64,000 nucleotides of DNA from an uncultured Alphaproteobacteria bacterium (GCA_963843565.1 CAWJKY010000002.1:84041-148040), one strand, 5' to 3'; positions 1 through 48,750 are shown, counted from the stretch's first letter. Numbers and translations: made by a program. The notes: generated from the sequence alone by a model not told the origin.

Positions 1-1283
1 GCCTCTACCCGAAGATCAGCGCCGACGGGCGCTTCGTGGCGTTCTTTTCCGGCGCCGCCAACCTCGTCAGCAGCGACACCAACGGCAAGAACGATGTCTT
101 CGTCCGTGACCGGCAGACCGGCACGACGGAACTGGTGAGCGTCGCGACCGGCGGCGGTCAGGCAACCGACGACAGCCTCAACCCGGCGATCAGCGCCGAC
201 GGACGCTTCGTGGCGTTCTATTCCTACGCCAACAACCTTGTCAGCGGCGACTCCAACAGCTTTGCGGATATCTTCGTCCATGACCGGCAGACCGGCACGA
301 CGGCACGGGTGAGCGTCGTCACCGGCGGCAGCCAGGCGATCGGCGGCGGCAGCATCAGCCCGGCGATCAGCGCCGACGGTCGCTTCGTGGCGTTCGAGTC
401 CGACGCCGCCAATCTTTACGGCGGCGACACCAACAGTGCCAGCGACATCTTCGTCCATGACCGGCAGACCGGCACGACGGAATGGGTGAACTACGCGCCG
501 GGCAACGGCCAGGCAAACGGCGACAGCTACCTCGCGGCGATCAGCGCCGACGGGCGCTTCGTGGCATTTGAATCCTACGCCACCAACCTCGTCAGCGGCG
601 ACAGCAACGGTGCCTACGACATCTTCGTCCATGACCGGCAGACCGGCGCGACGGAACGGGCGAGCGTCACGACAGGCGGCGTCCAGGCGAACGACAGCGC
701 CTACTACGCGGCGATCAGCGCCGACGGGCACTTCGTGGCATTCGAATCCGTCGCCACCAACCTTGTCAGCGGCGACAGCAATGGCGACTCCGACATCTTC
801 GTCCGCGACCGCGGCACCAGCGGAGCCGCACCGCTGGCGCCGTTGGCTCTGAACGCAACCGACGTCGGCGACAGCGCCTTCAGCGCCAACTTCACCGGTC
901 AGGACGCGACCGCCGCCGGCTACCGCATCGACGTGGCGACGACCTCCACCTTCGCGAGCGTCGGCGCACCAGCCGAGAGACCCGCCGACTTTGTGCCGGG
1001 CTATCAGAGCAAGCTGATCCTGTGCGTCCCCAACCCATGCACGCCCGGCACGGTCAGCCAGGTGGTGAGCGACGTCCAGCCCGGCACCCAGGAGTATTTC
1101 TACCGGGTCCAGGCCTGGGGCCTCGGCGGAGACAGCCCCTACTCGGACACCGTCCTGGCGAACCCGATCCCGACGACCCCGCCGCCCAGCAGCAGCAGCG
1201 CCCTGAATCCGCTCGTCCTCGCCGGACTCGGCCTCGTCGCCGCTCTGGGGCTGCTTGGCAAGGCGCGGCGGCGCACCGCCTGA
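1..1283 (+). CDS. Secreted PD40/TolB-like beta-propeller repeat protein with FN3-like domain and C-terminal TM/Arg tail (paralog 1, 5' end cut by window edge)
   Basis: The frame is open from the window edge (codons from pos 3: LYPKISADGRFVAFFS...). Five blades are visible, with consensus ISADGRFVAFxSxAxNLVSGDTNxxxDIFVHDRQTGTTERVSVxTGG. Then comes an FN3-like segment (SANFTG..YRIDV..YFYRVQAWG), a Pro-rich linker, ALNPLVLAGLGLVAALGLLGKARRRTA and the stop. Confidence 0.85.
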   Translation, partial: LYPKISADGRFVAFFSGAANLVSSDTNGKNDVFVRDRQTGTTELVSVATGGGQATDDSLNPAISADGRFVAFYSYANNLVSGDSNSFADIFVHDRQTGTTARVSVVTGGSQAIGGGSISPAISADGRFVAFESDAANLYGGDTNSASDIFVHDRQTGTTEWVNYAPGNGQANGDSYLAAISADGRFVAFESYATNLVSGDSNGAYDIFVHDRQTGATERASVTTGGVQANDSAYYAAISADGHFVAFESVATNLVSGDSNGDSDIFVRDRGTSGAAPLAPLALNATDVGDSAFSANFTGQDATAAGYRIDVATTSTFASVGAPAERPADFVPGYQSKLILCVPNPCTPGTVSQVVSDVQPGTQEYFYRVQAWGLGGDSPYSDTVLANPIPTTPPPSSSSALNPLVLAGLGLVAALGLLGKARRRTA

Positions 1284-1290
1284 ACAGCTC

Positions 1291-1317
1291 GCGCCGGCTT
1301 GCGACGAAGGCCGGCGC
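1291..1317 (+). terminator. Post-stop GC hairpin after paralog 1 (no U-tract)
   Basis: GCGCCGGC (1291-1298) pairs with GCCGGCGC (1310-1317), 8 nt after the stop codon. It is homologous to the hairpin after paralog 2. Confidence 0.45.
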
Positions 1318-1424
1318 ATCGGCGGCGGCAGAACGCTGGGCGCGCGAAGAATGCGTCCTGGCTTCACCGATTGCGGCATTGTGATAACGTTCCCCCGCGG
1401 TCGAGGCGCACAGGAGGGATTTCG

Positions 1425-3194
1425 ATGCAGACGAGAACAGCGACACGCGCGGGCAAACTGTGCCACGCGGCGACGGCGATTGTTGCCGGAATCATCCTGG
1501 CCGCGTCGGCGGCAACCGCCCTCGCCCAGTCGACGGAACGGGTGAGCGTCGCGACCGGTGGCGGCCAGTCGAACAGCGCCAGCGACTCCCCGGTGACCAG
1601 CGCCGACGGGCGCTTCGTTGCGTTCGAATCGATCGCCAGCAACCTCGTCAGCGGCGACACCAACGGTCTCAACGACATTTTCGTCCATGACCGGCAGACC
1701 GGCGCGACGGAACGGGTGAGCGTCGCCACCGGCGGTACCGAAGCGAACGGCGTCAGCTACAGCGCGGCGATCAGCGCCGACGGGCGCTTCGTGGCGTTCT
1801 GGTCCAACGCCAGCAACCTCGTCAGCGGCGACACCAACGGTACGTCCGACATCTTCGTCCATGACCGGCAGACCGGCACGACGGAACGAGTGAGCGTCGC
1901 CACCGGCGGTGCCGAAGGGAACGGCTCCAGCACCATCCCGGCGATCAGCGCCGACGGGCGCTTCGTGGCGTTCGTTTCCTACGCCACCAATCTCGTCGCC
2001 GGCGACACCAACGGTTACGCCGACGTCTTCGTCCATGACCGGCAGACAGGCACGACGGAACGGGTGAGCGTCGCGACCGGCGGCACCCAAGGGGACAACG
2101 CCAGCAGCGACGCGACGATCAGCCCCGACGGGCGCCTCGTGGCGTTCGATTCTGTCGCCACCAACCTCGTTGGCAGCGACGGCAACAGCAAACGCGACGT
2201 CTTCGTCCACGACCGGCAGACCGGCGCGACGGAACGGGTCAGCGTCGCGACCGGCGGTGCTGAGGTGAACGACGACAGCTACGTCCCGGTGATGAGCGCT
2301 GACGGGCGCCTTGTGGCGTTCTATTCCCACGCCAGCAACCTGGTCAGCGGCGACACCAACAGCAAATACGACGTCTTCGTTCATGACCGGCAGACCGGCA
2401 CGACGGAACGGGTGAGCGTCGCGACCGGCGGTACCGAGGCGATCGGCGGCGACAGCTACGCCCCTTCGATCAGCGCCGACGGGCGCTTCGTGGCGTTCTA
2501 TTCCGACGCCACCAACCTCGTCAGCGGCGACACCAACGCTGCCTACGACGTCTTCGTCCGTGACCGGCAGGCCGGCACGACGGAACGGGTGAGCGTCGCG
2601 ACCGGCGGCGGCCAGGCGAACAGTGACAGCCTATACCTAGCCATCAGCGCCGACGGGCGTTTCGTGGCGTTCCGTTCCAACGCCAGCAACCTCGTCAGCG
2701 GCGACACCAACGCGGCCTACGACATCTTCGTCCGCGACCGCGGCACCAGCGGTGCCGCGCCGCTGGCGCCCCTGGCCCTGAACGCGACCGACGTCGGCGC
2801 CGACGCCTTCACCGCCAACTGGACCGGTCAGGACGCAAGCGCCGCCGGCTACCGCATCGACGTGGCGACGACCTCCTCCTTCAGCAGCGTCGGCGCAGGA
2901 GCCGAGGGGCCCGCCGACTTTGTGCCGGGCTACCAGAGCAAGCTGATCCTGTGCGTTCCCAATCCGTGCGTGCCCGGTACGGTCAGCCAGGTGGTGAGCG
3001 ACGTGCAACCGGGCACCCAGGCGTACTATTACCGCGTCCAGGCCTGGGGCCTCGGCGGCGACAGCGCATTCTCGGACCCGGTCCTTGCGAACCCGCCTCC
3101 CGCAGAGTCCAAGACCGCCATCGGACCGTTGGAGCTTCTGGCCTTATCGCTGGTGGCTTTCGCCGGGCTCGGATGGCGGTGGCGTCGGACCTGA
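1425..3194 (+). CDS. Secreted 7-bladed PD40/TolB-like propeller + FN3-like + C-terminal TM/Arg tail protein (paralog 2)
   Basis: ATG 1425 is preceded by AGGAGGG (1412-1418). The N-terminus looks like a signal peptide (AIVAGIILAASAATALA/QS). There are seven S/I-x-DGR-[FL]-VAF blades, an FN3-like segment (TANWTG..YRIDV..YYYRVQAWG) and the tail AIGPLELLALSLVAFAGLGWRWRRT. Confidence 0.9.
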   Translation: MQTRTATRAGKLCHAATAIVAGIILAASAATALAQSTERVSVATGGGQSNSASDSPVTSADGRFVAFESIASNLVSGDTNGLNDIFVHDRQTGATERVSVATGGTEANGVSYSAAISADGRFVAFWSNASNLVSGDTNGTSDIFVHDRQTGTTERVSVATGGAEGNGSSTIPAISADGRFVAFVSYATNLVAGDTNGYADVFVHDRQTGTTERVSVATGGTQGDNASSDATISPDGRLVAFDSVATNLVGSDGNSKRDVFVHDRQTGATERVSVATGGAEVNDDSYVPVMSADGRLVAFYSHASNLVSGDTNSKYDVFVHDRQTGTTERVSVATGGTEAIGGDSYAPSISADGRFVAFYSDATNLVSGDTNAAYDVFVRDRQAGTTERVSVATGGGQANSDSLYLAISADGRFVAFRSNASNLVSGDTNAAYDIFVRDRGTSGAAPLAPLALNATDVGADAFTANWTGQDASAAGYRIDVATTSSFSSVGAGAEGPADFVPGYQSKLILCVPNPCVPGTVSQVVSDVQPGTQAYYYRVQAWGLGGDSAFSDPVLANPPPAESKTAIGPLELLALSLVAFAGLGWRWRRT

Positions 3195-3201
3195 ACGGTT
3201 C

Positions 3202-3228
3202 GCGCCGGCCTTCGGCGAAGGCCGGCGC
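3202..3228 (+). terminator. Post-stop GC hairpin after paralog 2 (no U-tract)
   Basis: Perfect 11-bp stem GCGCCGGCCTT (3202-3212) / AAGGCCGGCGC (3218-3228) with a 5-nt loop. No T-run follows, so intrinsic-terminator function is uncertain. Confidence 0.45.
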
Positions 3229-3271
3229 ATCACCTATGCCGCGCTGCGCGCGCCTGAACACCTGCCGCCAG

Positions 3272-3296
3272 ATTCCACTTTCGCCGGTTGTGGAAC
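3272..3296 (+). promoter_or_regulatory. Conserved dyad upstream of paralog 3 (ATTCCAC-N11-GTGGAAC)
   Basis: Inverted repeat read directly from the sequence. It is followed by the conserved TGTGATCTTGAT and lies ~47 nt upstream of ATG 3343. Confidence 0.4.
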
Positions 3297-3342
3297 TGTG
3301 ATCTTGATCTGCGGTGGTTGAGGCGTACCCGAGGGCATCGCG

Positions 3343-5118
3343 ATGCGGACGAGACCAGCGACAGGCGTGGCACGGTGGCGCCGCGCGGCGACGGCGATTG
3401 CCGCCGCAATCATCCTGGCCGCGCCGGCCGCAACCGCCCTCGCCCAGTCGACGGAACGGGTGAGCGTCGCGACCAATGGCGGCCAGGCAAACGACGTCAG
3501 CTATCCCCAGGCGATCAGCGCCGACGGGCGCTTCGTGGCGTTCTATTCCACCGCCACCAACCTCGTTGGCGGCGACACCAACGCTGCCAGCGACGTCTTC
3601 CTCCGTGACCGGCAGACCGGCACGACGGAACGGGTGAGCGTCGCGACCGGCGGCGGCGAGGCGACCGGCGGCGGCAGCTACTTCCCAGCGATCAGCGCCG
3701 ACGGGCGCTTCGTGGTGTTCCAGTCCGGCGCCACCAACCTCGTCAGCGGCGACACCAACGGCACCAACGATATCTTCGTCCATGACCGGCAGACCGGCGC
3801 GACCGAACGGGTGAGCGTCGCGACGGGCGGCGGCCAGGCGACCGGCGCCAGCGCCTACCCGGCGATCAGCGCTGACGGGCGCTTCGTGGCGTTCTATTCC
3901 GCCGCCACCAACCTCGTCAGCGGCGACACCAACGCTGCCGACGACATCTTCGTCCATGACCGGCAGACCGGCACGACGGAGCGGGTGAGCGTCGCCACCG
4001 GCGGCGGCGAGGCGAACGGCAACAGCTCGGGCAATGCGATCAGCGCCGACGGGCGCTTCGTGGCGTTCCATTCCGACGCCACCAACCTCGTCAGCGGCGA
4101 CACCAACGGTTTCAACGACATCTTCGTCCATGACCGGCAGACCGGCGCGACCGAACGGGTGAGCGTCGCGACGGGCGGCGGCCAGGCGACCGGCGCCAGC
4201 GGCGGCGAGGCGATCGACGGCGACGGACGCTTCGTGGCATTCTATTCCACCGCCACCGACCTCGTCGGCGGCGACACCAACGGCTTCTCCGACGTCTTCG
4301 TCCATGACCGGCAGACCGGCACGACGGAACGGGTGAGCGTCGCGACCGGCGGCGGTCAGGCCGACAACGGAAGCTTCAACCTAGCGATCAGCATCGACGG
4401 GCGCTTCGTGGCATTTGAATCCTTCGCCACCAACCTGGTCAGCGGCGACACCAACGGTACCTACGACATCTTCGTCCACGACCGGCAGACCGGCACGACG
4501 GAACGGGTGAGCGTCACGACCGGCGGTACCGAAGCGACCGGCGGCAGCTACGGCCCGGCGATCGACGCCGACGGGCGCTTCGTGGCGTTCTATTCCGTCG
4601 CCACCAACCTCGTCAGCGGCGACACCAACGCTTTCAGCGACACATTCGTCCGTGACCGCGGCACCAGCGGGGCCGCGCCGCTGGCGCCCCTGGCCCTGAA
4701 CGCGACCAACGTCGGCGCCGACGCCTTCACCGCCAACTGGACCGGTCAGGACGCGAGCGCCGCCGGCTACCGCATCGACGTGGCGACACCCTCCACCTTC
4801 AGCAGCGTCGGCGCGGCAGGCGAGGGGCCCGCCGATTTCGTGCCCGGTTATCAGAGCAAGCTGATCCTGTGCGTCCCCAACCCGTGCACGCCCGGCACGG
4901 TCAGTCTCAACGTGAGCGACGTGCAGCCCGGCACCCAGGCATACTACTACCGCGTCCAGGCCTGGGGCCGCGGTGGCGACAGCGCCTTCTCGGACCCGGT
5001 CCTGGCGAACCCGCCGCCCCCCGAGTCCAAGACCGCGCTCAATCCGCTCGTCCTCGCCGGACTCGGCCTCGTCGCCGCTCTGGGGTTGCTTGGCAGGGCC
5101 CGCCGGCGCACGGCCTGA
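3343..5118 (+). CDS. Secreted 7-bladed PD40/TolB-like propeller + FN3-like + C-terminal TM/Arg tail protein (paralog 3)
   Basis: Same architecture as paralog 2. ATG sits in the conserved context GCATCGCGATG. Signal peptide AIAAAIILAAPAATALA/QS, 7 blades, tail ALNPLVLAGLGLVAALGLLGRARRRTA. Confidence 0.9.
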   Translation: MRTRPATGVARWRRAATAIAAAIILAAPAATALAQSTERVSVATNGGQANDVSYPQAISADGRFVAFYSTATNLVGGDTNAASDVFLRDRQTGTTERVSVATGGGEATGGGSYFPAISADGRFVVFQSGATNLVSGDTNGTNDIFVHDRQTGATERVSVATGGGQATGASAYPAISADGRFVAFYSAATNLVSGDTNAADDIFVHDRQTGTTERVSVATGGGEANGNSSGNAISADGRFVAFHSDATNLVSGDTNGFNDIFVHDRQTGATERVSVATGGGQATGASGGEAIDGDGRFVAFYSTATDLVGGDTNGFSDVFVHDRQTGTTERVSVATGGGQADNGSFNLAISIDGRFVAFESFATNLVSGDTNGTYDIFVHDRQTGTTERVSVTTGGTEATGGSYGPAIDADGRFVAFYSVATNLVSGDTNAFSDTFVRDRGTSGAAPLAPLALNATNVGADAFTANWTGQDASAAGYRIDVATPSTFSSVGAAGEGPADFVPGYQSKLILCVPNPCTPGTVSLNVSDVQPGTQAYYYRVQAWGRGGDSAFSDPVLANPPPPESKTALNPLVLAGLGLVAALGLLGRARRRTA

Positions 5119-5261
5119 ACGGCTCGCGCCGGCGTTCGGCGTCGATCGACGCGGAAGCCGTCGCCCGCCGGGCGTCAGAGCACGGCTAAAATCCATGCTT
5201 TCGTCGGTTGTGGGATTGTGGTTTCATCCGGCGGCGGTTGAGGCGCACCGGGGGGATCGCG

Positions 5262-7037
5262 ATGCCAGCGACAGCAGGGACAGGCGTGGGCAAATGGCGC
5301 CACGCGCCGATGGCGATTGCCGCCGGATTCATCCTGGCCGCATCGGCCGCAACCGCCCTGGCCCAGACGACGGAGCGGGCGAGCGTCGCGACCGGCGGCG
5401 GCCAAGGGGACAGCGACAGCCGCGCTGGGGCAATCAGCGCGGACGGACGCTTCGTGGCGTTCCATTCCTACGCCGCCAACCTCGTCGGCGGCGACACCAA
5501 CGGCAAATTCGACATCTTCGTCCATGACCGGCAGACCGGCACGACGGAACGGGTGAGTGTCGCGACCGGCGGCGGCCAGGCGGACGGCGACAGCGTAAAC
5601 CCGGCGATCAGCGCCGACGGACGCTTCGTGGCGTTCTATTCCAACGCCACCAATCTCGTCAGCGGCGACACCAACGGCAAGAACGACGTCTTCGTCCATG
5701 ACCGGCAGACCGGCACGACGGAACGCGTGAGCGTCGCGACCGGCGGCGGCCAGGCGACCGGCGGCGACAGCATCGACCCGGCGATCAGCGCCGACGGGCG
5801 CTTCGTGGCGTTCTGGTCCTTCGCCACCAACCTCGTGGGCGGCGACACCAACGGCAATTTCGACATCTTCGTCCATGACCGGCAGACCGGCACGACGGAA
5901 CGGGTAAGCATCGCGACCGGCGGTGCCCAAGCGACCGGCAACAGCAGCGTCCCGGCGATCAGCGCCGACGGGCGCTTCGTGGCGTTCCAGTCCTATGCCA
6001 CCAACCTCGTCGGCGGCGACACCAACGCTACCCCCGACACCTTTGTCCATGACCGGCAGACCGGCACGACGGAACGGGTCAGCATCGCGACCGGCGGTGC
6101 CCAAGCGACCGGCAACAGCATCAACCCGGCGATCAGCGCCGACGGGCGCTTCGTGACGTTCGATTCCGCCGCCAGCAATCTCGTCAGCGGCGACACCAAC
6201 GGTTTCGACGACATCTTCGTCCATGACCGGCAGACCGGCACGACGGAACGGGTGAGCGTCGCAACCGGCGGTGCCGAAGCGGACGGCGCCAGCAGCGACC
6301 CGGCGATCAGCGCCGACGGGCGCTTCGTGGCGTTCTGGTCCTTCGCCACCAACCTCGTCGCCGGCGACACCAACACTAACTCCGACGTCTTCGTCCATGA
6401 CCGGCAGACCGGCACGACGGAGCGGGTGAGCATCGCGACCAACGGCGGCCAGGCCGGCGGCGTCAGCTACTATCCGGCGATCAGCGCCGACGGGCGCTTC
6501 GTGGCATTCGAATCCCTCGCCGCCAACCTAGTCGGCGGCGACACCAACGCGGCCTACGACATCTTCGTCCGCGACCGCGGCACCAGCGGAGCCGCGCCGC
6601 TGGCGCCGTTGGCTCTGAACGCGACCGACGTCGGCGACAGCGCCTTCACCGCCAACTGGACCGGCCAGGACGCAACCGCCGCCGGCTACCGCCTCGACGT
6701 GGCGACGACCTCGTCCTTCAGCAGCGCCGGCGCGGCCGGGGGGCGGCCCGCCGGGTTCGTGCCGGGGTATCAGAGCAAGGTGATCCTGTGCGTCCCCAAC
6801 CCGTGCGTGCCCGGCACGGTGAGCGAGGCGGTGAGTGACGTGCAGCCAGCCAGCCAGGAATATTACTACCGGGTCCAGGCCTGGGGCCGCGGCGGCGACA
6901 GCCCCTTCTCGGACACGGTCCTGGCGAACCCGCCGCCCCCCGAGTCCAAGACCGCCCTCAATCCGCTCGTCCTCGCCGGGCTCGCCCTCGTTGCCGCTCT
7001 GGGGCTGCTTGGCAAGGCCAGGCGGCGCACCGCCTGA
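5262..7037 (+). CDS. Secreted 7-bladed PD40/TolB-like propeller + FN3-like + C-terminal TM/Arg tail protein (paralog 4)
   Basis: ATG 5262 lies in the context GGGGGGATCGCGATG, homologous to the other copies; the track ORF start at 5208 is probably too far upstream. Signal peptide, 7 blades, FN3-like segment, tail ALNPLVLAGLALVAALGLLGKARRRTA. Confidence 0.9.
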   Translation: MPATAGTGVGKWRHAPMAIAAGFILAASAATALAQTTERASVATGGGQGDSDSRAGAISADGRFVAFHSYAANLVGGDTNGKFDIFVHDRQTGTTERVSVATGGGQADGDSVNPAISADGRFVAFYSNATNLVSGDTNGKNDVFVHDRQTGTTERVSVATGGGQATGGDSIDPAISADGRFVAFWSFATNLVGGDTNGNFDIFVHDRQTGTTERVSIATGGAQATGNSSVPAISADGRFVAFQSYATNLVGGDTNATPDTFVHDRQTGTTERVSIATGGAQATGNSINPAISADGRFVTFDSAASNLVSGDTNGFDDIFVHDRQTGTTERVSVATGGAEADGASSDPAISADGRFVAFWSFATNLVAGDTNTNSDVFVHDRQTGTTERVSIATNGGQAGGVSYYPAISADGRFVAFESLAANLVGGDTNAAYDIFVRDRGTSGAAPLAPLALNATDVGDSAFTANWTGQDATAAGYRLDVATTSSFSSAGAAGGRPAGFVPGYQSKVILCVPNPCVPGTVSEAVSDVQPASQEYYYRVQAWGRGGDSPFSDTVLANPPPPESKTALNPLVLAGLALVAALGLLGKARRRTA

Positions 7038-7098
7038 CCGCCTGGCGCCGGCTTTCGGCAACGATCGACGCGGAAGCGATCGCCCGCCGTGTTGCGAG

Positions 7099-7123
7099 GT
7101 TCCACTTTCGCCGGTTGTGGAAC
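7099..7123 (+). promoter_or_regulatory. Conserved dyad upstream of paralog 5 (GTTCCAC-N11-GTGGAAC, perfect 7-bp arms)
   Basis: GTTCCAC 7099-7105, spacer TTTCGCCGGTT, GTGGAAC 7117-7123. The position relative to the ATG matches copy 3. Degenerate versions precede copies 2 and 4. Confidence 0.45.
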
Positions 7124-7167
7124 TGTGATCTTGATTTGCCGCGGTTAACGCGCCCGGGGGGATCGCG

Positions 7168-8967
7168 ATGCAGACGAAATCAGTGACAGGCGTGGCCACA
7201 TGGCGCCACGCCTCGACGGCGATTGCCGCCGCAATCATCCTGGCCGCGTCGGCCGCAACCGCCCTCGCCCAGACGACGGAACGGGCGAGCGTCGCGACCG
7301 GCGGCAGCCAGGCGACCAGCGACAGCTACAACCCGGCGATCAGCGCGGACGGGCACTTCGTGGCGTTCCAGTCCGCCGCCGCCGACCTCGTCGCCAGCGA
7401 CACCAACGGCAATTTCGACATCTTTGTCCATGACCGGCAGACCGGCACGACCGAACGGGTGAGCGTCGCGACCGGCGGCAGCCAGGCGACCGGCGGCAAC
7501 AGCAACAACGCGGCGATCAGCGCCGACGGGCGCTTCGTGGCGTTCGAATCCGACGCCACCGACCTCGTCAGCGGCGACACCAACAGTGCCAAAGACATCT
7601 TTGTCCATGACCGGCAGACCGGCACGACGGAACGGGTGAGCGTCGCGACCAACGGCACTCAAGAGACCGGCGCCAGCTCCGCCCCGGCGATCAGCGCCGA
7701 CGGGCGCTTCGTGGCGTTCGAATCCGACGCAATCGACCTGGTCAGCGGCGACACCAACGCTGCCACCGACATCTTCGTCCATGACCGGCAGACCGGCACG
7801 ACGGAACGGCTGAGCGTCGCGACCAACGGCACTCAAGCGACCGGCGCCAGCATCGCCGTGGCGATCAGCGCCGACGGGCGCTTCGTGGCGTTCGAATCCA
7901 CCGCCGCCGACCTCGTCAGCGGCGACACCAACAGTGCCAAAGACATCTTCGTTCATGACCGGCAGACCGGCACGACGGAACGGGTGAGCGTCGCGACCGG
8001 CGGCGTCCAGGTGCCCAGCCACAGCTTCGCGGCCGCGATCAGCGCCGACGGGCGCTTCGTGACGTTCTTTTCCGGCGACGCCAACCTGGTCAGCGGCGAC
8101 ACCAACAGCAAAGTCGATATCTTCGTCCATGACCGGCAGACCGGCACGACAGAACGGGTGAACGTCGCCACCGGCGGGACCCAGGCGGACGACAACAGCT
8201 ACAACTCGACGATCAGCGCTGACGGGCGCTTCGTGACGTTCCATTCCTACGCCACCAATCTCGTCAGCGGCGACGGCAACGGCTACGTCGATATCTTCGT
8301 CCATGACCGGCAGACCGGCACGACGGAACGGGTGAGCGTCGCGACCGGCGGGACCGAAGCGACCGCCGACAGTGTCCTCCCGGCGATCAACGCCGACGGG
8401 CGCTTCGTGGCGTTCTATTCCGGCGCCACCGACCTCGTCAGCGGCGACACCAACTCTGTCCCGGACATCTTCGTCCGCGACCGCGGCACCAGCGGAGCCA
8501 CGCTGGCGCCCCTGGCGCTGAACGCAACTGACGTCGGTACCGACGCCTTCACCGCCAACTGGACCGGCCAGGACGCAAGCGCCGTCGGCTACCGCATCGA
8601 CGTGGCGACGACCTCCTCCTTCGCGAGCGTCGGCGCGGCAGCCGAGGGGCCCGCCGACTTTGTACCGGGATATCAGAGCAAGCTGATCCTGTGCGTCCCC
8701 AACCCGTGCGTGCCCGGCACGGTCAGCCTCGCGGTAACCGGCGTGCAGCCAGGCACCCAGGCATACTACTACCGCGTCCAGGCCTGGGGCCTCGGCGGCG
8801 ACAGCGCCTACTCGGACGCGGTCCTGGCGAACCCGCCCCCCGCGACTCCGACCCCAACGCCCCCGCCCCCCGAGTCCAGCAGCGCCCTCAATCCGCTCGT
8901 CCTCGCCGGACTCGGCCTCGTCGCCGCTCTGGGGCTGCTTGGCAAGGCCCGACGGCGCACGGCCTGA
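7168..8967 (+). CDS. Secreted 7-bladed PD40/TolB-like propeller + FN3-like + C-terminal TM/Arg tail protein (paralog 5)
   Basis: ATG lies in the context GGGGGGATCGCGATG. Signal peptide AIAAAIILAASAATALA/QT, 7 blades, FN3-like segment. The Pro/Thr linker is longer (PPPATPTPTPPPPESSS). Tail ALNPLVLAGLGLVAALGLLGKARRRTA. Confidence 0.9.
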   Translation: MQTKSVTGVATWRHASTAIAAAIILAASAATALAQTTERASVATGGSQATSDSYNPAISADGHFVAFQSAAADLVASDTNGNFDIFVHDRQTGTTERVSVATGGSQATGGNSNNAAISADGRFVAFESDATDLVSGDTNSAKDIFVHDRQTGTTERVSVATNGTQETGASSAPAISADGRFVAFESDAIDLVSGDTNAATDIFVHDRQTGTTERLSVATNGTQATGASIAVAISADGRFVAFESTAADLVSGDTNSAKDIFVHDRQTGTTERVSVATGGVQVPSHSFAAAISADGRFVTFFSGDANLVSGDTNSKVDIFVHDRQTGTTERVNVATGGTQADDNSYNSTISADGRFVTFHSYATNLVSGDGNGYVDIFVHDRQTGTTERVSVATGGTEATADSVLPAINADGRFVAFYSGATDLVSGDTNSVPDIFVRDRGTSGATLAPLALNATDVGTDAFTANWTGQDASAVGYRIDVATTSSFASVGAAAEGPADFVPGYQSKLILCVPNPCVPGTVSLAVTGVQPGTQAYYYRVQAWGLGGDSAYSDAVLANPPPATPTPTPPPPESSSALNPLVLAGLGLVAALGLLGKARRRTA

Positions 8968-9009
8968 CCGAGAAGGATCTCGAGACCGGGATTGACATGG
9001 CGGCCACGT

Positions 9010-9035
9010 GAGCGCGCCCGCAACGTGGCGCGCTC
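9010..9035 (+). terminator. GC hairpin downstream of the last array gene
   Basis: GAGCGCGCC (9010-9018) - N8 - GGCGCGCTC (9027-9035), a perfect 9-bp stem. It lies between the array and the ATPase gene. Confidence 0.4.
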
Positions 9036-9118
9036 CGCCCGTCGTGCTAAAACGCGGCGGGCGGACAGCTGTTCTCTGCACACGAGGCGGGCGTGATCAT
9101 CGACGGCGTGATGCTGCT

Positions 9119-11632
9119 GTGGTTCGGTCCGGCGACACGCCGGTGGTGACCGGGCTGACCGACGCCGAGGCCGCCGCCCGGCGGGCGCGCGGCGAAGGCA
9201 ACGACGTCGAGATGGCCGCCAGCCGCGGCTACCTCGACATCGTCCGCTTCAACCTCTTCAACCTGTTCAACAACATCCTGTTCGTGATCGGCGCGGCGCT
9301 GATCGCGCTCGGCCGCACCTACGACGCCATGACCAGCGTCGGCCTGGCCCTGGTCAACGCCGTCATCAGCACCGTCCAGGAACTTTACGCCAAGCGGCAG
9401 CTCGACCAGATCGCGCTGCTCACCCGCCCGTCGGTGACGCTGGTGCGCGGCGGCAGCGAGCGCACCGCCGACCCGGCCGAGATCGTCAAGGGCGACACGC
9501 TGCGCCTCAAGGTCGGCGATCAGGTGGTGGTCGACGGAACGGTGACCGGCGAGGGAACGCTGGAGATCGACGAGGCGCTGCTCACCGGCGAATCGAACCC
9601 GGTCACCAAACGCGCCGGCGACCAGCTTCTGTCGGGCAGCTTCTGCATCGGCGGCAGCGGCGCCTACACCGCCGATCAGGTCGGCCGCGACAGCTACGCC
9701 AACAAGCTGACCGAGAGCGCCCGCCAGTTTCGCGTCGTGCTCACCCCGCTGCAGAAGCAGATCAACTACACGGTGCGCATCATCATGCTGGTGGTGGCGC
9801 TGATGAGCGGCATCATTTTGGTCGCGGCGATCCTCGAAAACGCCACGACGCTGCGCGTCGTCCAGCTCGCGGCGGTGCTCTCCGGGCAGGTTCCCTACGG
9901 CCTGTTCTTCATCATCGTCGTCGCCTACGCCTTCGGCGCCACCCAGAGCGCCCGCCGTGGCGCCCTCATCCAGCAGATCAACGCGGTCGAGTCGCTGAGC
10001 GACATCGACGTGCTGTGCAGCGACAAGACCGGAACGCTGACCACCAACCGGCTGACCGTCGCCGAGATCGTGCCGGCCGACGGCGGCAGCGCCGACCGCC
10101 TCGCGGCGCTGCTCGGGCGCTTCGCGCACGGCTCCGCCGACGGCGGCCCGACCATCGCGGCGCTGCGCAGCGCGATGCCGGCGGAGACCGCCGCGGTCGC
10201 CGGCGCCGTGCCGTTCTCCTCGGCGCGCCGCTGGAGCGCGGTGACGCTCTCCGGCGACAGCGACGCCGGAACGTATGTGCTCGGCGCCTGGGACGCGCTG
10301 GCGCCGGCGCTCGCCGACGGCAGCGAGATCCTGACCGACGCCCTCGCCCGCCTCACCGGCCGCGGCTTCCGCGTGCTGCTGTTCGCCCGCGCCGCCGACG
10401 GCGCCGCGCCCGGTGGCGAGGATCCGGCGCTGCCGCCGCTCGCCGCCCTCGGCCTCGTCGCGCTCGCCGACGAACTGCGGCCGCAGGCGGCGGAGATGCT
10501 GGCGGCCTTCGCCAGCATGGGCATCCGCCTGAAGATCATCTCCGGCGACGACCCGCGCACCGTCGCCGCGCTCGCCACCCAGGCGGGGCTTGCCGGCGAC
10601 ATCGTCACCGCGACCGGGCCGGAACTGGAAGATCTGGCCGACGACGCCTTCGCCGAGGCGGCGGAACGGGCGACCGTGCTCGGCCGCGTCTCGCCCGCCC
10701 AGAAGGAGCGCATCGTCGCGTCGCTGGTGGCGGGCGGTCACTACGTCGCCATGATCGGCGACGGCGTCAACGACGTGCTGGCGCTCAAGAAAGCCCAGCT
10801 GGGCATCGCCATGCAGAGCGGCAGCCCGGCGGCCCGCGCCATCGCCGACATCGTGCTGTCCGGCGACAGCTTCGCGCCGCTGCTGCCGGCCTTCGACGAG
10901 GGGCGCCGCATCATCGGCGGCATGATCACGGTGATGGCGCTGTTCCTGGCCCGCGTCTCGGCCTCGATCCTGACGATCATCGCGATCACCATGCTCGGTC
11001 TCTCGTTTCCCTTCGAACCGGCGCAGGTGGCGACCTCGCTGTTCACGGTCGGCGTCCCCGCGATGCTTCTGTCGCTGTGGGCCAGGCCGGTCACCCGGGT
11101 CGGCGACATCCTGCCCGACCTGGTGCGCTTCGTGATCCCCAGCGCCATCCTGTCGATGATCGTCGGCGCCGGCCTCTACACCCTCGAGTACCACCGCGTG
11201 GAGACCTCGGTGACCGGGATCGACATTCCGCAGCGCGTCATCGACATGTTTGAGCACGCCACCGGCGTCAAATACTCGGCGACCGACCAGTTCGCCGGAG
11301 CGGCGGCCACCATCGTCGCGCAGACGACGCTGTCGGTGTTCATCGCCTACTCGGCCTTCATCCTGATCCTGTTCGTCGAGCCGCCGCTGCGCTACTTCAC
11401 CGGCTGGCGCCGGCTGAGCACCGACCTTCGCCCGACCTGGATGATGATCGCGCTGTCGGTGGTCTTCTTCGTCATCGTGCAGAACGGGATGCTCGCCTCC
11501 TACTTCGCGCTGGTGCCGCTGCAGCCGCACATGCTGCTCGACGTCGCCATCGGACTGGTCATCTGGACGGTAGCACTGCGCGAGATGTGGCGTCGCGACT
11601 GGCTGGAGCGGTTCCTGGGACCGCGTGGATGA
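9119..11632 (+). CDS. Cation-translocating P-type ATPase (HAD-IC type), substrate unknown
   Basis: TGES actuator motif (LLTGESNPV), phosphorylation motif CSDKTGTLT (10022-10036), hinge motif GDGVNDVLALKKA, and about 10 predicted TM segments. The start is uncertain: in-frame GTGs occur at 9119, 9143 and 9146, and the track start at 9008 lies inside a hairpin. Confidence 0.9.
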   Translation: MVRSGDTPVVTGLTDAEAAARRARGEGNDVEMAASRGYLDIVRFNLFNLFNNILFVIGAALIALGRTYDAMTSVGLALVNAVISTVQELYAKRQLDQIALLTRPSVTLVRGGSERTADPAEIVKGDTLRLKVGDQVVVDGTVTGEGTLEIDEALLTGESNPVTKRAGDQLLSGSFCIGGSGAYTADQVGRDSYANKLTESARQFRVVLTPLQKQINYTVRIIMLVVALMSGIILVAAILENATTLRVVQLAAVLSGQVPYGLFFIIVVAYAFGATQSARRGALIQQINAVESLSDIDVLCSDKTGTLTTNRLTVAEIVPADGGSADRLAALLGRFAHGSADGGPTIAALRSAMPAETAAVAGAVPFSSARRWSAVTLSGDSDAGTYVLGAWDALAPALADGSEILTDALARLTGRGFRVLLFARAADGAAPGGEDPALPPLAALGLVALADELRPQAAEMLAAFASMGIRLKIISGDDPRTVAALATQAGLAGDIVTATGPELEDLADDAFAEAAERATVLGRVSPAQKERIVASLVAGGHYVAMIGDGVNDVLALKKAQLGIAMQSGSPAARAIADIVLSGDSFAPLLPAFDEGRRIIGGMITVMALFLARVSASILTIIAITMLGLSFPFEPAQVATSLFTVGVPAMLLSLWARPVTRVGDILPDLVRFVIPSAILSMIVGAGLYTLEYHRVETSVTGIDIPQRVIDMFEHATGVKYSATDQFAGAAATIVAQTTLSVFIAYSAFILILFVEPPLRYFTGWRRLSTDLRPTWMMIALSVVFFVIVQNGMLASYFALVPLQPHMLLDVAIGLVIWTVALREMWRRDWLERFLGPRG

Positions 11633-12216: not shown

Positions 12217-12303
12217 TGGTGTCGTGGCCCCTCGTGCGGGCGCCACCCTAGCGCATCCTTCGCCCAAGCGGAAAAATGCAGGTTGACGCCCCCGCACCGC
12301 ACC

Positions 12304-44609: not shown

Positions 44610-46502
44610 CTACTCCGCCGCTTGCGAGCCGGTCTCGACGCTGGGCTCCAACACCGCGTCCGGGACCGGCCGTTCCGCATCGAGGAAGCCGCCTGACTGG
44701 CGGTTCCACAGCGACGCATAAAGGCCGCCGCGCTTGATGAGATCGGCGTGGGTGCCCATCTCGACGATCTGTCCCTTGTCGAGCACCACCAGCCGGTCCA
44801 TCGCCGCGATGGTCGACAGGCGGTGCGCGATGGCGATCACCGTCTTGCCCCTCATCAGCTTGGTGAAGCTCTCCTGAATGGCGGCCTCGACCTCCGAATC
44901 GAGCGCCGAGGTCGCCTCGTCGAGGACCAGGATCGGCGCGTCCTTGAGCAGCACCCGCGCGATGGCGACGCGCTGGCGCTGGCCGCCGGACAGCTTGGCG
45001 CCGCGCTCGCCGACGTGGGCATCGAAGCCCCGCCGGCCGTGGTAGTCGGACAGGTCCGGGACAAACTGCTCGGCGTGCGCCTGACGCAGCGCGCCGCGCA
45101 TGGCGTCCTCGCCCGCCTCGGGCCGGCCGTAGAGCACGTTCTCGCGGATCGAGCGATGCAGCAGCGAAGTATCCTGGGTGATGAGGCCGATCTGCTTGCG
45201 GAGCGAATCCTGCGACACCTGGGCGATGTCCTGCCCGTCGATGACGATGCGCCCGCCCTCCACGTCGTAGAAGCGCAGTAGCAGATTGGCGATGGTCGAC
45301 TTGCCGGCACCCGAGCGGCCGACCAGCCCGACCTTCTCGCCGGCCGCGATGTTGAGCGACAGGTTCTCGATGATGCCGCTCTTGCGGCCGTAGTGGAACG
45401 TGACGTTCTCGAAGCGAATCTCGCCTTTCGGCACCTTCAGCTCCATGGCGTCGGGCACGTCGACGAGGTCCTGCGGGCGCGCGATGGTCTCCATGCCCTC
45501 CTGCACGGCGCCGACGTTGTCGAAGATGCCGATCGAGGTCCACATGATCCACCCGGACATCGTCGCGATGCGGAAGGCGAGGCCCGCCGCGATGGTCAGC
45601 GCGCCGAGGCTGAGATTGCCGTTCGCCCACAACGTGACCGCAAGCGCCGCCGTCCCGCCGATCAGGAGGCCGTTCATGATCGCCACGGTAGACGACATGG
45701 CGGTGACCATGCGGGTCGACTTGTTGAACTTCTGCTGGTGATCGTTGACGGCGTCGCGCGCGTAATCGTCCTCGCGCGACGTATGCGCGAAGAGCTTCAC
45801 GGTCTGGATGTTGGTGTAGCTGTCGACAATCCGCCCGGTCAGCATCGAGCGGGCCTCCGACACGGTCACCGAGCGCCTGCGGATGCGCGGCACGAAGTAA
45901 TAGAGGGTCAGCACGAAGCCCGCGATCCACAGACCAAGCGGCGCCATCAGCCACACATCGAGCTGGCTGAACAGGATCATCGAACTGATCGAGTAGATGG
46001 TGACGAACCACAGCGCGTCGCAGACCTGCACCACCGACTCACGCAGTGCCGGGCCGGTCTGGATGATCTTGGAGGCGATGCGGCCGGCGAAATCGTTGGT
46101 GAAGAAGCCGACCGTCTGGCGCAGCACGTAGCGGTGCGTCTGCCAGCGCACCAGGTTGGTGAACGATGGCGCCAGCGACTGCTGCACCAGCAGGTCGTGC
46201 AGGATGTTGAAGAACGGGCGCGCGACGATGACGACGAACGCCATCCACGCAAACGTCCAGCCGTAGTCGGCGAGCATGCGCTCCGGCGTGGTCGCCTTGA
46301 GCATGTCGACGAGGTTGCCGGCGTAGCGGAAGATCGAGACCTCGATCAGCGACACGAAGAAGCCGACGAACATCAGCGCCACAAGCACCGGCCACACCTG
46401 CTTGGTGTAGTGCCAGTAGAAGCCGCCAAGCGTCGGCGGCGGCATCGACGGATCGTGCGCCCGGAAGGGGTCAATCAGCCTTTCGAAGAAGCGGAAGATC
46501 AT
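44610..46502 (-). CDS. ABC exporter, fused permease-ATPase (paralog A)
   Basis: Six-TM domain, Walker A GRSGAGKST, signature LSGGQRQR, Walker B ILVLDEATSALD. Confidence 0.92.
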   Translation of the reverse strand: MIFRFFERLIDPFRAHDPSMPPPTLGGFYWHYTKQVWPVLVALMFVGFFVSLIEVSIFRYAGNLVDMLKATTPERMLADYGWTFAWMAFVVIVARPFFNILHDLLVQQSLAPSFTNLVRWQTHRYVLRQTVGFFTNDFAGRIASKIIQTGPALRESVVQVCDALWFVTIYSISSMILFSQLDVWLMAPLGLWIAGFVLTLYYFVPRIRRRSVTVSEARSMLTGRIVDSYTNIQTVKLFAHTSREDDYARDAVNDHQQKFNKSTRMVTAMSSTVAIMNGLLIGGTAALAVTLWANGNLSLGALTIAAGLAFRIATMSGWIMWTSIGIFDNVGAVQEGMETIARPQDLVDVPDAMELKVPKGEIRFENVTFHYGRKSGIIENLSLNIAAGEKVGLVGRSGAGKSTIANLLLRFYDVEGGRIVIDGQDIAQVSQDSLRKQIGLITQDTSLLHRSIRENVLYGRPEAGEDAMRGALRQAHAEQFVPDLSDYHGRRGFDAHVGERGAKLSGGQRQRVAIARVLLKDAPILVLDEATSALDSEVEAAIQESFTKLMRGKTVIAIAHRLSTIAAMDRLVVLDKGQIVEMGTHADLIKRGGLYASLWNRQSGGFLDAERPVPDAVLEPSVETGSQAAE

Positions 46503-46514
46503 CTTGCGCCGTTC

Positions 46515-48368
46515 CTATTCCGCCGCCTGGTTCACCGGTTCGACATCGAGGAAGCCGCCCGACTGACGGCTCCACAGCGCCGCGTAGAGGCCGTCATGAC
46601 GGATCAGCTCCTCATGGCTGCCGACCTCGACGATGCGGCCCTGATCGAGCACCACGAGACGATCCATCGCGGCGATGGTCGACAGGCGGTGCGCGATGGC
46701 GATGACCGTCTTGCCGGCCATCAGGCCGTAGAGGGTCTCCTGGATCGCCGCCTCGATCTCCGAATCGAGCGCCGAGGTCGCCTCGTCGAGCACCAGGATC
46801 GGCGCATCCTTCAGGAAGATGCGCGCAATCGCGATGCGCTGGCGCTGGCCGCCGGACAGCTTGATGCCGCGCTCGCCGACGTGGGCGTCGTAGGCGGTGC
46901 GGCCCTTGGGGTCGGCAAGCTCGCGGATGAAGGTGTCGGCATAGGCGAGCTCGGCGGCGCGCGCGACATCGGCTTCCGTGGCGTCGGGACGGCCGTAGAG
47001 GATGTTGTCGCGCACCGAGCGGTGCAGCAGCGAGGTGTCCTGGGTGACCATGCCGATCTGGCGGCGGAGCGATTCCTGCGTGACGGCGGCGATGTCCTGC
47101 CCGTCGATCAGGATACGCCCGCCTTCCAGATCGTAGAAGCGCAGGAGCAGGTTGACGACGGTCGACTTGCCGGCGCCCGAGCGGCCGACCAGCCCGACCT
47201 TCTCGCCCGGGCGGATGGTCAGGTTGAAGTCGTCGAGGACCTTGCCGGCGCCGCGCCCGTAGTGGAAGCGGACGTGATCGAAGCGAATCTCGCCGTTGGG
47301 CACGGTCAGCGCCGCAGCGTCGGGCCGGTCCTTCACCGTGATCGGCCGCGACAGCATGGTGATGCCGTCGCGCACCGTGCCGATGCTCTCGAAGAGCTGG
47401 GCGACCTCCCACATGATCCACTGCGACATGGTGCGCAGCCGCATGACGAGGCCAAGCGCAACGGTGATCGCCCCGACGCTCATCAGCGAGCGCGTCCACG
47501 CGTAGATGGCAATCGCCGCGACCAGCACCAGAACCACCGAGTTCAGCACGTTCAGCAGTAGCGACAGCGACGTGAACATGCGCGCCTGCTGGTTCACCGT
47601 GCCCAGGAACGAACTCATCGCCGAGCGGGCGTAATCGTGCTCGCGGGTGGTGTGGGCGAACAGCTTGACGGTCTGGATGTTGGTGTAGCTGTCGACGACG
47701 CGGCCGGTCATCTCGGCGCGCGCATCGGCCTGCAGCTCGCCGACCGCGCCAAGGCGCGGCACGAACCAGGCGAGCAGCGCCACATAGGCCGCAAGCCACA
47801 CGATGAGCGTCGCCACCAGCCACACGTCGCTTTGCCCGAGCAGCCACAGCGTGCCGATGAAATAGACGACGATGTACACGCCGACGTCGAGGATGCGCGT
47901 GATGCTGTCGCGCACCGCGAGCGCCGTCTGCATCACCTTCTGCGAGACGCGGCCGGCGAACTCGTCGTTGAAGAAGGCGAGGCTCTGGCCGAGCATGAAG
48001 CGGTGCGCCTTCCAGCGGACCAGCATCGGATAGGCACCGAAGGTGGTCTGGAACTGGAGCAGGCTGCCGCCGAGGCCAAGCAGCGGGAAGACGATCGCCA
48101 CCACCACTGCCATGGCCAGAAGCGGCGCCCAGTAGCTGGCAAGGAACGCCGCGCGATCGCCGTGGGCGAGCCAGTCGACCAGGCTGCCGGTGAACTGCAG
48201 AAACACGATCTCGACCACCGACATGGTGGCAGTGAGGAGCCCCATGAGGACGAGCCAGGGCAGCACCGGGCGCGAGTAATAATAGAGGAACGCGAACAGG
48301 CGGCCGGGCGGAGTCCGGCCGTCGTCGGGCGGGAAGGGATCGACAAGACGTTCGAAGAAGCGGAACAC
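46515..48368 (-). CDS. ABC exporter, fused permease-ATPase (paralog B)
   Basis: Same architecture as paralog A. N-terminus MFRFFERLVDPF is parallel to paralog A MIFRFFERLIDPF. 12-nt gap to paralog A. Confidence 0.92.
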   Translation of the reverse strand: MFRFFERLVDPFPPDDGRTPPGRLFAFLYYYSRPVLPWLVLMGLLTATMSVVEIVFLQFTGSLVDWLAHGDRAAFLASYWAPLLAMAVVVAIVFPLLGLGGSLLQFQTTFGAYPMLVRWKAHRFMLGQSLAFFNDEFAGRVSQKVMQTALAVRDSITRILDVGVYIVVYFIGTLWLLGQSDVWLVATLIVWLAAYVALLAWFVPRLGAVGELQADARAEMTGRVVDSYTNIQTVKLFAHTTREHDYARSAMSSFLGTVNQQARMFTSLSLLLNVLNSVVLVLVAAIAIYAWTRSLMSVGAITVALGLVMRLRTMSQWIMWEVAQLFESIGTVRDGITMLSRPITVKDRPDAAALTVPNGEIRFDHVRFHYGRGAGKVLDDFNLTIRPGEKVGLVGRSGAGKSTVVNLLLRFYDLEGGRILIDGQDIAAVTQESLRRQIGMVTQDTSLLHRSVRDNILYGRPDATEADVARAAELAYADTFIRELADPKGRTAYDAHVGERGIKLSGGQRQRIAIARIFLKDAPILVLDEATSALDSEIEAAIQETLYGLMAGKTVIAIAHRLSTIAAMDRLVVLDQGRIVEVGSHEELIRHDGLYAALWSRQSGGFLDVEPVNQAAE

Positions 48369-48720
48369 GAGTGGATAGCTCCGAAGATGTCTGGGCGCGC
48401 TCCGGCGGGAGCAGCGGGAAAAAGCGGGTGGCAGGTTCGGCCCGGAGCGCGAAGCGCCCGGGCTTACCTCCGATCCGGCGAGAAAGCGTCGTTCAGTTCT
48501 GGACGGTCAGACCCAACCTGAAGACGATGCCGGCGCGGCGGCTTGAACGAACAAGCTGCATCGACTCCATCGGCATCTCCTCTCGGGTTGGCGAAGCGCA
48601 AGCGCCTCCGGCCGGCGAACCCGGGGGCGTGAACTTCAAATGACTCGTGACGGCGCCTTGAATAGGCCGGTTTGGGCCGCATGCCTAGAGGTTGGGCAAC
48701 GGATGGCGACATACGCTTGA

Positions 48721-48742: not shown

Positions 48743-48750
48743 CGGGCCCC

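Follow-up and report, generated by a model that had tools for sequence, protein, structure and literature searches.

We analysed 64,000 nucleotides of one strand (hereafter the window; GCA_963843565.1 CAWJKY010000002.1:84041-148040) from an uncultured Alphaproteobacteria bacterium, the left end of which is occupied by a tandem array of genes for putatively exported beta-propeller proteins. The host is an uncultured soil alphaproteobacterium, and the closest named relatives of its YchF protein are from Bauldia sp. (81-82% identity). Calling of open reading frames (ORFs) placed five consecutive plus-strand paralogues, g1 to g5, head to tail between positions 1 and 8967 (Table 1). The full protein of g1, the copy that crosses the window edge, is found on the same 265-kb source contig (P0071, 579 aa as annotated). 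The four complete ORFs are intact, with exactly seven blades each, and the ATG-to-ATG distances are 1918, 1919 and 1906 nt. All pairwise comparisons of the coding sequences gave 82 to 86% identity over ~1.75 kb in a star-like pattern, with 84 to 90% in the C-terminal third, and the spacers are 74 to 81% identical, except for spacers 1 and 4, which gave no alignment (6 columns only). The longest exact repeat within the array is 82 nt, and just six measure 55 nt or more.

Gene-like codon composition, that is, a G+C content of 0.85 to 0.89 at third (GC3) and 0.54 to 0.57 at second (GC2) codon positions, was found in the plus-strand frames only. Three antisense ORFs of 407 to 633 aa (2983-4305, 5175-6398 and 7180-9081, all on the minus strand) mirror the array genes and fail the GC3/GC2 filter. 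Because their codon composition is not gene-like, they were judged artefacts; they are by-products of the GC-rich repeat, and an automatic annotator could miscall them.

Every spacer carries a Shine-Dalgarno (SD)-like run (GGAGGG or GGGGGG) and, 53 to 55 nt 5' of the ATG, a core motif, TTG[TC]GG[ACG]A[CT]TGTG. This motif occurs four times in the 64 kb, always in one of the four spacers, and is kept upstream of family members on two other contigs. Because it precedes each ATG, is restricted to the spacers and is retained elsewhere, each gene of the array probably forms its own transcription unit. Scans for sigma-70 promoters and intrinsic terminators gave nothing relevant within the array, and neither Rfam nor tRNA scans of the window gave a match. 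A reading of the upstream motif as an extracytoplasmic function (ECF)-type promoter (GGAAC ... GGTT) was set aside as a guess only, since the motif varies (GGCAT, GGGAT). The GC hairpin that directly follows the stop codon is strong in spacers 1 and 2, degenerate in spacers 3 and 4, and accompanied by a U-tract in none; with a folding energy of -23.7 kcal/mol, that of spacer 1 reaches a z score of only -0.98. These hairpins are terminator-like at most.

Table 1. Features of the tandem array (nucleotide positions counted from the first letter of the window)
Feature	Position (nt)	Strand	Residues (aa)	Description
g1	..1283	+		3' part of paralogue 1: blades 3-7, FN3, type-1 tail ALNPLVLAGLGLVAALGLLGKARRRTA; 5' end beyond window edge
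Spacer 1	1284-1424	+		GC hairpin 1291-1317, core motif 1371-1383, SD-like GAGGGA ahead of ATG 1425
g2	1425-3194	+	589	Sole copy in the window with type-2 tail AIGPLELLALSLVAFAGLGWRWRRT
Spacer 2	3195-3342	+		GC hairpin 3202-3228 (z = -3.67), core motif 3288-3300, SD-like run
g3	3343-5118	+	591	Reference copy
g3 signal peptide	3343-3447		1-35	
g3 seven-bladed propeller	3448-4653		36-437	Pfam, AlphaFold2, Foldseek
g3 FN3	4654-5013		438-557	Pfam, AlphaFold2, Foldseek
g3 linker and tripartite tail	5014-5115		558-591	
Spacer 3	5119-5261	+		Degenerate hairpin, core motif 5208-5220, SD GGGGGGAT
g4	5262-7037	+	591	Type-1 tail; equals P0047 except for the annotated start
Spacer 4	7038-7167	+		Core motif 7115-7127, SD GGGGGGAT
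g5	7168-8967	+	599	Last copy; longer Pro/Thr linker, type-1 tail

The encoded proteins begin with a signal-like segment that, as read from the sequence, has a basic n-region and an Ala/Ile/Leu-rich core, ends in ALA followed by Q(S/T), and lacks a lipobox Cys. The segment is followed by a blade repeat of 58 to 59 aa (consensus DGRFVAFxSxAxNLVSGDTNxxxDIFVHDRQTGTTERVSVATGGxQAxGxSxxPAISA), with seven DGRFV anchors per complete gene. Pfam PD40 (PF07676) matched g3 with 46.8 bits and g5 with 65.1 bits, above its cutoff of 20.9. The AlphaFold2 model of g3 has 28 strands (7 x 4), with a predicted local distance difference test (pLDDT) score of ~90 and a predicted template modelling score of 0.70. Its first strand (residues 36-39, TERV) lies ahead of the first full repeat and its last repeat gives three strands only, so that the missing strand of the last blade is most likely supplied by the N-terminal TERVSV segment, which would close the ring, a closure predicted from the strand count and not from coordinates. 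Foldseek related the propeller to those of S9 peptidases and TolB (probability 1.0, E ~1e-13) at 14 to 16% identity. A sequence search of PDB chains with the propeller gave no match, NCBIfam searches with whole array proteins returned nothing above the cutoffs, and a catalytic domain is absent from the array proteins.

The domain that follows the propeller scored 22.5 and 19.1 bits against the fibronectin type III model (FN3; PF00041), below the cutoff of 25, because of two insertions relative to canonical relatives. These became apparent in alignment to canonical bacterial FN3 domains, and one of them holds the LCVPNPC sequence that is invariant in all five copies. Modelled separately, the domain has a seven-stranded core (pLDDT 80-92), and all of its top 50 Foldseek matches are FN3 domains (TMt up to 0.79). 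Its profile also finds multi-FN3 proteins, with E values down to 2e-96, the best fibronectin chain in the PDB being at E = 0.002. Homology and predicted fold thus both identify it as a true FN3 domain. A Pro/Ser/Thr-rich linker connects it to the C-terminal tail. In one relative from a 3.16-Mb contig (P0105), an additional Ig-like domain of ~75 aa (CTLTADPT...CQASVRV) stands between FN3 and tail.

A prediction made earlier from this stretch (hereafter the original prediction) had described five same-strand genes of one architecture, and ORF calling, Pfam, AlphaFold2 and Foldseek bore this out part by part. Its domain calls (PD40 propeller, FN3, C-terminal anchor) and its conserved LCVPNPC hold, and its start spacings agree to the nucleotide. 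Homologous spacers were also found as it had said, spacers 1 and 4 excepted, and its head-to-tail duplication of whole units is in keeping with the homology of coding sequences and spacers, the core motif and SD-like run in every spacer, and the strong post-stop hairpin in two of the four. Seven blades of ~44 aa had been proposed: the number stood for each complete gene, but the repeat is longer. The three analyses that it had suggested for these points agreed with it as well, with units alignable all against all, PD40 above the Pfam cutoff and FN3 just under it (fold and homology confirming the latter), and a predicted structure of seven four-stranded blades whose closure follows from the strand count.

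The window holds 33 blades, somewhat short of the ~35 originally counted, and at ~72% amino acid and ~83% nucleotide identity (mean amino acid identities of 71 to 74%) they are too far apart for the term 'near-identical' that had been applied to them. Most blade positions are invariant or nearly so across the 33 blades. Variation is found at positions 7, 9, 21, 22, 47, 49 and 51-53, and to a lesser degree at 11, 15, 20, 44, 45 and 48, that is, at ~9 to 16 positions per blade, each of which takes 5 to 11 different residues rich in Tyr, Asn, Asp, Gly, Ser and Ala. With the strands ordered as A (PAISA), B (RFVAF), C (DIFVHD) and D (TERVSV), the invariant DG forms the A-B turn and RQTG the C-D turn, and the variable residues fall in the two long loops, B-C and D-A, and in the ends of the strands next to them. 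In the usual convention for propellers, this side would be the top face, where ligands bind.

Non-synonymous (dN) and synonymous (dS) divergence between paralogues was calculated by the Nei-Gojobori method. Scaffold sites gave dN 0.064 and dS 0.18 (dN/dS ~0.35), the FN3 domain gave dN/dS 0.29, and the propeller as a whole 0.85. Because of the low ratios at scaffold sites and in FN3, the array proteins are under constraint, with purifying selection acting on them. The blades themselves are interchangeable across genes and positions: blades of the same index in different genes share 71.4% of their amino acids, those of different index 72.2% and those of the same gene 74.2%, and nucleotide identity is 83.2% within and 82.5% between genes. 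Gene-specific blade positions number 10, compared with 9.8 expected by permutation (P = 0.52), and with this an independent amplification of blades in each gene was ruled out. A run test found no long gene-conversion tracts in the propeller. Its 2+2 site partitions are all common (30:23:16) and marginally clustered (P = 0.058), a pattern that would fit many short inter-blade conversions, recurrent selected substitution, or balanced old alleles with recombining flanks.

All intact copies, in the window and at the sister loci described below, end in a tripartite tail, made of a (K/T)TA[IL]xP[LF]x[LF] motif, a transmembrane (TM) helix and an RxRR cluster. Four window copies end in ..(S/T)ALNPLVLAGLGLVAALGLLGKARRRTA and g2 in ..TAIGPLELLALSLVAFAGLGWRWRRT; a third flavour, ALDPLTLFGLGSLAAVGWRFRKR, is found in relatives, and the three coexist. 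The tail swap of g2 was the one mosaic tract to reach significance when the four complete paralogues were submitted to the run test.

The same tail was found on other proteins in a related genome, ENA ERZ25039549 contig_18800 (2.74 Mb; hereafter the sister genome), whose YchF is 99% identical to that of the window. There it ends a subtilisin-like S8 peptidase and a tandem family with an unrelated ~480-aa N-terminal domain plus a canonical FN3 (locus L005, 2577-4661 and 4824-6638), besides the propeller family. Two shorter ORFs (L005 7688-8533 and 10001-10483; 281 and 160 aa) are possible fragments of the N-domain family. Because the tail is common to proteins with no other homology and is tripartite, the architecture standard for C-terminal sorting domains (bioRxiv 10.1101/2023.06.07.544157), it bears the hallmark of a modular domain, and its role would be sorting or anchoring.

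Some further observations concern these tail-bearing proteins and their surroundings. The members of the N-domain family (L005 2577-10483; 694 and 604 aa) have a signal peptide, an N-terminal domain with no Pfam match, sometimes an Ig-like domain, and a TAIGP(L/F)EL tail, and their cluster lies directly downstream of a propeller-family copy. The Ig-like domain of P0105 is homologous to those of the S8 peptidase and of the 694-aa protein, further evidence that domains may have been shuffled among tail-bearing proteins. At another locus (L003 3514-7968), the S8 peptidase has an Ig-like domain and ends in an ALDPLTLFGL tail. After it come two paralogous regulators of the LuxR/GerE type, arranged in tandem (398 and 400 aa) and standing immediately upstream of a three-copy propeller array, and a partial duplicate of nadC with its upstream intergenic region lies between propeller copies 2 and 3. 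At L006 (9490-20612), two propeller copies in tandem, with frameshifts in the assembly, lie next to an ECF sigma factor and a generic locus for exopolysaccharide (Wzy_C, a WcaJ-type priming transferase, GT4, Poly_export and a Wzz-type chain-length/tyrosine-kinase protein).

Comparison of the tail with curated sorting signals gave partial matches to the LPXTG_anchor, MYXO-CTERM, JDVT-CTERM and PEP-CTERM models, for the most part over their TM and Arg segments. PEP-CTERM (TIGR02595) scored 9.0 to 13.3 bits (cutoff 16), and in place of PEP the motif has LNP, IGP, LDP or LHP. LPXTG (TIGR01167) gave 16.8 to 17.1 bits over model positions 11 to 33 only, the helix and Arg cluster, and the tail has no LPXTG motif. 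MYXO-CTERM reached 10 to 16 bits (cutoff 20) and JDVT-CTERM 12.8 to 13.6 (cutoff 27); the signature motif of these two requires a Cys (bioRxiv 10.1101/2023.06.07.544157), which the tail lacks. IPTL-CTERM (TIGR04174) had no match at E <= 10 with six tails, and its positive control, P0303, aligned over the whole model with 19.5 bits (cutoff 20.5).

A collinear array precedes the same P-type ATPase gene in the sister genome; it comprises six copies or more, at least one of which lies to the left of the g1 counterpart. Flanking genes are 97 to 99% identical between the two genomes (dS 0.037-0.063, dN 0.001-0.014), and the positional counterparts within the array are 80 to 89% identical, the same as paralogues within one genome. 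For the g5 propeller, dS is 0.18 and dN 0.20, that is, a dN/dS of ~1.1 between positional counterparts. Along the right end of the array, identity to the sister genome is 0.83 to 0.86 across g5, 0.90 in a mixed block (8708-9206) and 0.99 from position 9207, and on this side the hypervariable region ends just past the g5 stop. The positional counterpart is the best match for just 2 of the 33 blades. No blade of the window exceeds 92.5% identity to any of 80 sister blades, and shuffling of whole blade cassettes between the genomes was ruled out on these grounds. Near-identical flanks set against an array that has diverged to the level of paralogues indicate that hardly anything of the repertoire has been left unchanged between two genomes whose remaining sequence differs by 1 to 3%. 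To the right of the array, a ~2-kb insertion that the sister genome has and the window lacks (L007 13113-15075; window ~12256-12293) encodes a 568-aa VWA_2 protein between an ABM and a FecR-domain gene.

Blades of this type are found in more than 8000 proteins of many phyla, at 50 to 64% identity and usually with about twice as many blades, under the JGI name 'Tol biopolymer transport system component'. Full-length relatives (74-78% identity) were found on four public contigs only: the 265-kb source contig and contigs of 3.16 Mb, 2.74 Mb and 39.9 kb. As regards the survey of related genomes suggested in the original prediction, the 3.16-Mb contig has at least seven copies, and the 2.74-Mb contig at least twelve copies or fragments at four loci. 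The array had also been suspected to extend beyond the window. On the source contig, the protein search returned five full-length members only; the syntenic sister array does have its additional copy or copies on the left. A profile of FN3 plus tail gave only weak unrelated FN3 matches in 185,579 species-representative genomes and 241 million JGI metagenome records, and a word-indexed search returned fragments from the same contigs only. An exhaustive search of 1.84 billion proteins found one representative of the family that covers FN3 plus tail (P0085), a fragment (P0393) and ordinary multi-FN3 proteins.

Two copies on the 39.9-kb contig are located inside a mobile-element and defence island. 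In L004 (1-21908; ENA ERZ25039495 contig_79054), the two family copies lie within an apparent integrative element with serine recombinases, a ParB-methylase and an AAA_25 protein, which adjoins a defence-type cluster (AIPR, Z1, DUF4420, HATPase_c_3 and a DNA methylase). Because of this last location, family genes can probably travel on mobile DNA. PADLOC anti-phage defence models matched 0 families for g2 and g3, and the idea of a defence system was rejected on this result. The claim that so many blades in 9 kb are an unusual investment was overstated, given how common the blade type is and that repetitive propellers have already been described (PMC9218822). The statement that no function has been described stands: NCBIfam, protein and cluster searches and PADLOC returned neither a function nor a named system, and in the literature we found no functional study of this protein type or of blade-type proteins.

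Taken together, we consider it probable (roughly 60%) that the array is a repertoire, specific to this lineage, of binding proteins that are exported and either anchored in the membrane or sorted to the surface, and in which a rigid PD40 scaffold carries fast-diversifying, ligand-facing loops and ends in a modular tail. The product would be exported via its Sec-type signal peptide and would fold into a closed seven-bladed PD40-type propeller, with one four-stranded blade per 58-aa repeat, placed on an FN3 stalk and a Pro-rich linker. The tripartite C-terminal domain would hold the protein in the membrane, either with type-I topology in the inner membrane, on the periplasmic side, or, somewhat more likely, until a dedicated sorting protease releases it to the surface or the exopolysaccharide layer, by analogy with exosortase and PEP-CTERM proteins. 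Since the proteins lack a catalytic domain, binding is the most likely role of the propeller. Each paralogue would bind differently, which would make the array a repertoire, because nearly all amino acid variation is in the B-C and D-A loops, the canonical ligand-binding face. This repertoire would turn over much faster than the surrounding chromosome, with selection as the presumed driver. A surface-protein repertoire had already been put forward in the original prediction and is plausible, being favoured by two lines, namely the sharing of the tail with unrelated passengers and the variable residues in putative top-face loops.

A bolder version can be proposed, in which the tail is a new class of sorting signal, 'TA(I/L)xPL-CTERM', with a dedicated protease of its own in a soil lineage of alphaproteobacteria that has been little sampled, and the arrays are a hypervariable surface-receptor repertoire whose top-face loops are remodelled all the time, either through short conversions between blades or through balancing selection that maintains old alleles. 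We regard it as tentative and rather doubtful. If true, strains with 98-99% identical flanks would display entirely different sets of receptors, and bacteria would have their own equivalent of variable-receptor families, with a propeller as the scaffold.

Several points weigh against the repertoire of sorted binding proteins. The position of the variable loops on the top, ligand-binding face is reasoned from the strand order and not from coordinates. The excess of dN over dS at the variable sites (dN 0.67, dS 0.37, dN/dS ~1.8) is descriptive and not an independent test of selection, these sites having been picked by their variability. None of the curated NCBIfam sorting-signal models matches the tail motif, and neither the 64-kb window nor ~100 kb of sister-genome sequence (five loci) yielded an exosortase, a sortase or a rhombosortase. 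A single CPBP/Rce1-like protease was seen there, 6 kb from the L005 cluster; it scored far below the myxosortase-family cutoffs, and a link to myxosortases was dropped as weak generic homology only. The idea of a PEP-CTERM-linked exopolysaccharide locus was also discarded, since the exopolysaccharide genes beside the L006 copy pair stayed below the cutoffs of the XrtA-specific models TIGR03013, TIGR03027, TIGR03007 and TIGR02917. Finally, the sister assembly is rich in frameshifts, and in-frame chimeric joins of paralogues are possible in either metagenome assembly.

The most serious alternative is that these are plain periplasmic, type-I bitopic PD40 proteins with a TolB-like housekeeping role, the helix being an uncleaved stop-transfer sequence and the protein never reaching the surface. 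A signal peptide with a C-terminal TM segment and a positive cluster, as read from the sequence, is the textbook topology of such a protein, TolB is among the best structural matches, the scanned loci yielded no sorting enzyme, and the tail passes no curated sorting-signal model. However, a simple anchor would not need a conserved motif ahead of the helix, nor near-identical helices in an S8 peptidase and an unrelated family, and TolB is a conserved single-copy protein, in contrast to at least five hypervariable tandem copies, at 14-16% identity to it, that differ from one close relative to another. We therefore hold this explanation to be unlikely, if still one to be reckoned with.

Less probable again is an evolutionary by-product, that is, neutral duplication of a recently amplified propeller drifting under relaxed constraint. 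Repetitive propellers do arise continually in many lineages, including the DPPIV/S9 families (PMC9218822). The dN/dS of the whole propeller (0.85 between paralogues, ~1.1 between positional counterparts) and the frameshifts in several sister-genome copies are what relaxed constraint might leave behind. However, the four complete ORFs of the window are intact with seven blades each, scaffold (~0.35) and FN3 (0.29) ratios are low, and variation keeps to certain positions in the loops and is not evenly distributed. The sister frameshifts could be sequencing errors if contig_18800, which we take to be a Flye-style name, is from a long-read assembly.

Collapsed or chimeric repeats in the assembly are a very improbable source of the array. 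The contig is metagenome derived, and six exact repeats of at least 55 nt, one of them of 82 nt, could confuse a short-k assembler, but the copies differ by 14 to 18%, too much for a collapse, and all reading frames are intact; moreover, an independently assembled 2.74-Mb contig has a collinear array of at least six copies, and there are more arrays at three other loci and on a third contig. The least probable of all is targeted hypermutation by a diversity-generating retroelement or similar, which would account for variation concentrated at few codons of a rigid scaffold, but no reverse transcriptase was found in the window or the scanned sister loci, E, W, Q and K, residues beyond the reach of AAY-templated adenine mutagenesis, occur at the variable positions, and synonymous divergence of the scaffold is also ~fourfold above the flanks, so that the excess is not limited to the variable codons.

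The window otherwise holds ordinary chromosomal genes, among them a P-type ATPase, a two-component system, proC, lgt, prs-rplY-pth-ychF, a bc1 complex and ABC transporters. Three consecutive paralogous fused ABC exporters (ABC_membrane plus ABC_tran; 630, 617 and 686 aa) lie at 44610-50811 on the minus strand. On the plus strand, two adjacent paralogues with an adenylate/guanylate-cyclase domain and TPR were called with an overlap of ~130 nt (55682-59256), and the start of the second is probably further downstream. At 60208-62320 (plus strand), a DUF58 protein comes after a MoxR-type AAA_3 ATPase, with a weak match to bpMoxR of the MoxR-vWA-beta-propeller ternary system.

If the proposed repertoire is real, a candidate sorting signal, and hence an undiscovered sorting enzyme, would be added to the small prokaryotic catalogue of C-terminal signals. 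It would also offer a natural rigid seven-bladed scaffold with ~60 to 110 diversified loop positions per protein, relevant to the engineering of propeller and FN3 binders. Compared with its flanks, the locus would be diverging between close relatives ~fourfold faster in its synonymous and 14- to 200-fold faster in its non-synonymous sites, as expected for genes that interact with phages, predators, hosts or kin. With sharp array boundaries, distinguishable paralogues and two related genomes at hand, it is practical to test. Should it be wrong, the array would amount to yet another expansion, within a single lineage, of a PD40 repeat protein that is very common.

Among known systems, the closest are the highly repetitive beta-propellers, defined by a median pairwise blade identity of >60% and known to arise by blade amplification in many lineages, including DPPIV/S9 families (Pereira & Lupas 2022; PMC9218822). 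At ~72%, the blades of the array exceed this threshold, and they share with that group the PD40 repeat and S9/TolB structural neighbours. Blade-by-blade orthology is lacking between close relatives here, as it is in that study. Unlike the DPPIV-like class of that study, which has a median of 13 blades, the array propeller has seven, is fused to FN3 and a tripartite tail, and is encoded by tandem genes. Nor do its blades show the signature of independent amplification described there for WRAP propellers (10 vs 9.8, P = 0.52). The propellers of TolB and S9 enzymes (PDB 4r40, 8wt1 and 5yzn) are of the same fold class and Pfam repeat as the array proteins, at 14 to 16% identity. TolB has six blades and an N-terminal domain that binds Pal and TolA, and S9 enzymes carry a catalytic alpha/beta-hydrolase domain, which the array proteins lack.

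In its C terminus, the family resembles proteins with PEP-CTERM, LPXTG, GlyGly-CTERM, MYXO-CTERM, JDVT-CTERM or IPTL-CTERM signals: a short motif that holds a conserved Pro, a TM segment and, at the very C terminus, an Arg cluster follow a Pro/Ser/Thr linker, and the same type of tail is present on several unrelated proteins of one genome. The composition of the helix (LAGLGLxxxLGLL) is reminiscent of PEP-CTERM. Unlike in those systems, the tail motif fits no curated model and contains no Cys, LPXTG or PEP.

The internalins of Listeria combine a signal peptide, a variable binding domain built of repeats, an Ig-like stalk and a C-terminal sorting signal, and their paralogues are partly found in tandem clusters. 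By analogy, the array proteins may follow the same design logic, although internalins have a leucine-rich repeat solenoid, an LPXTG/sortase anchor and a Gram-positive wall as their destination, and there is no homology between the two. The array is thus not a new principle; what is novel is a PD40 plus FN3 family with an uncatalogued tail, a scaffold with a putatively hypervariable top face, and a sharply bounded, fast-evolving locus.

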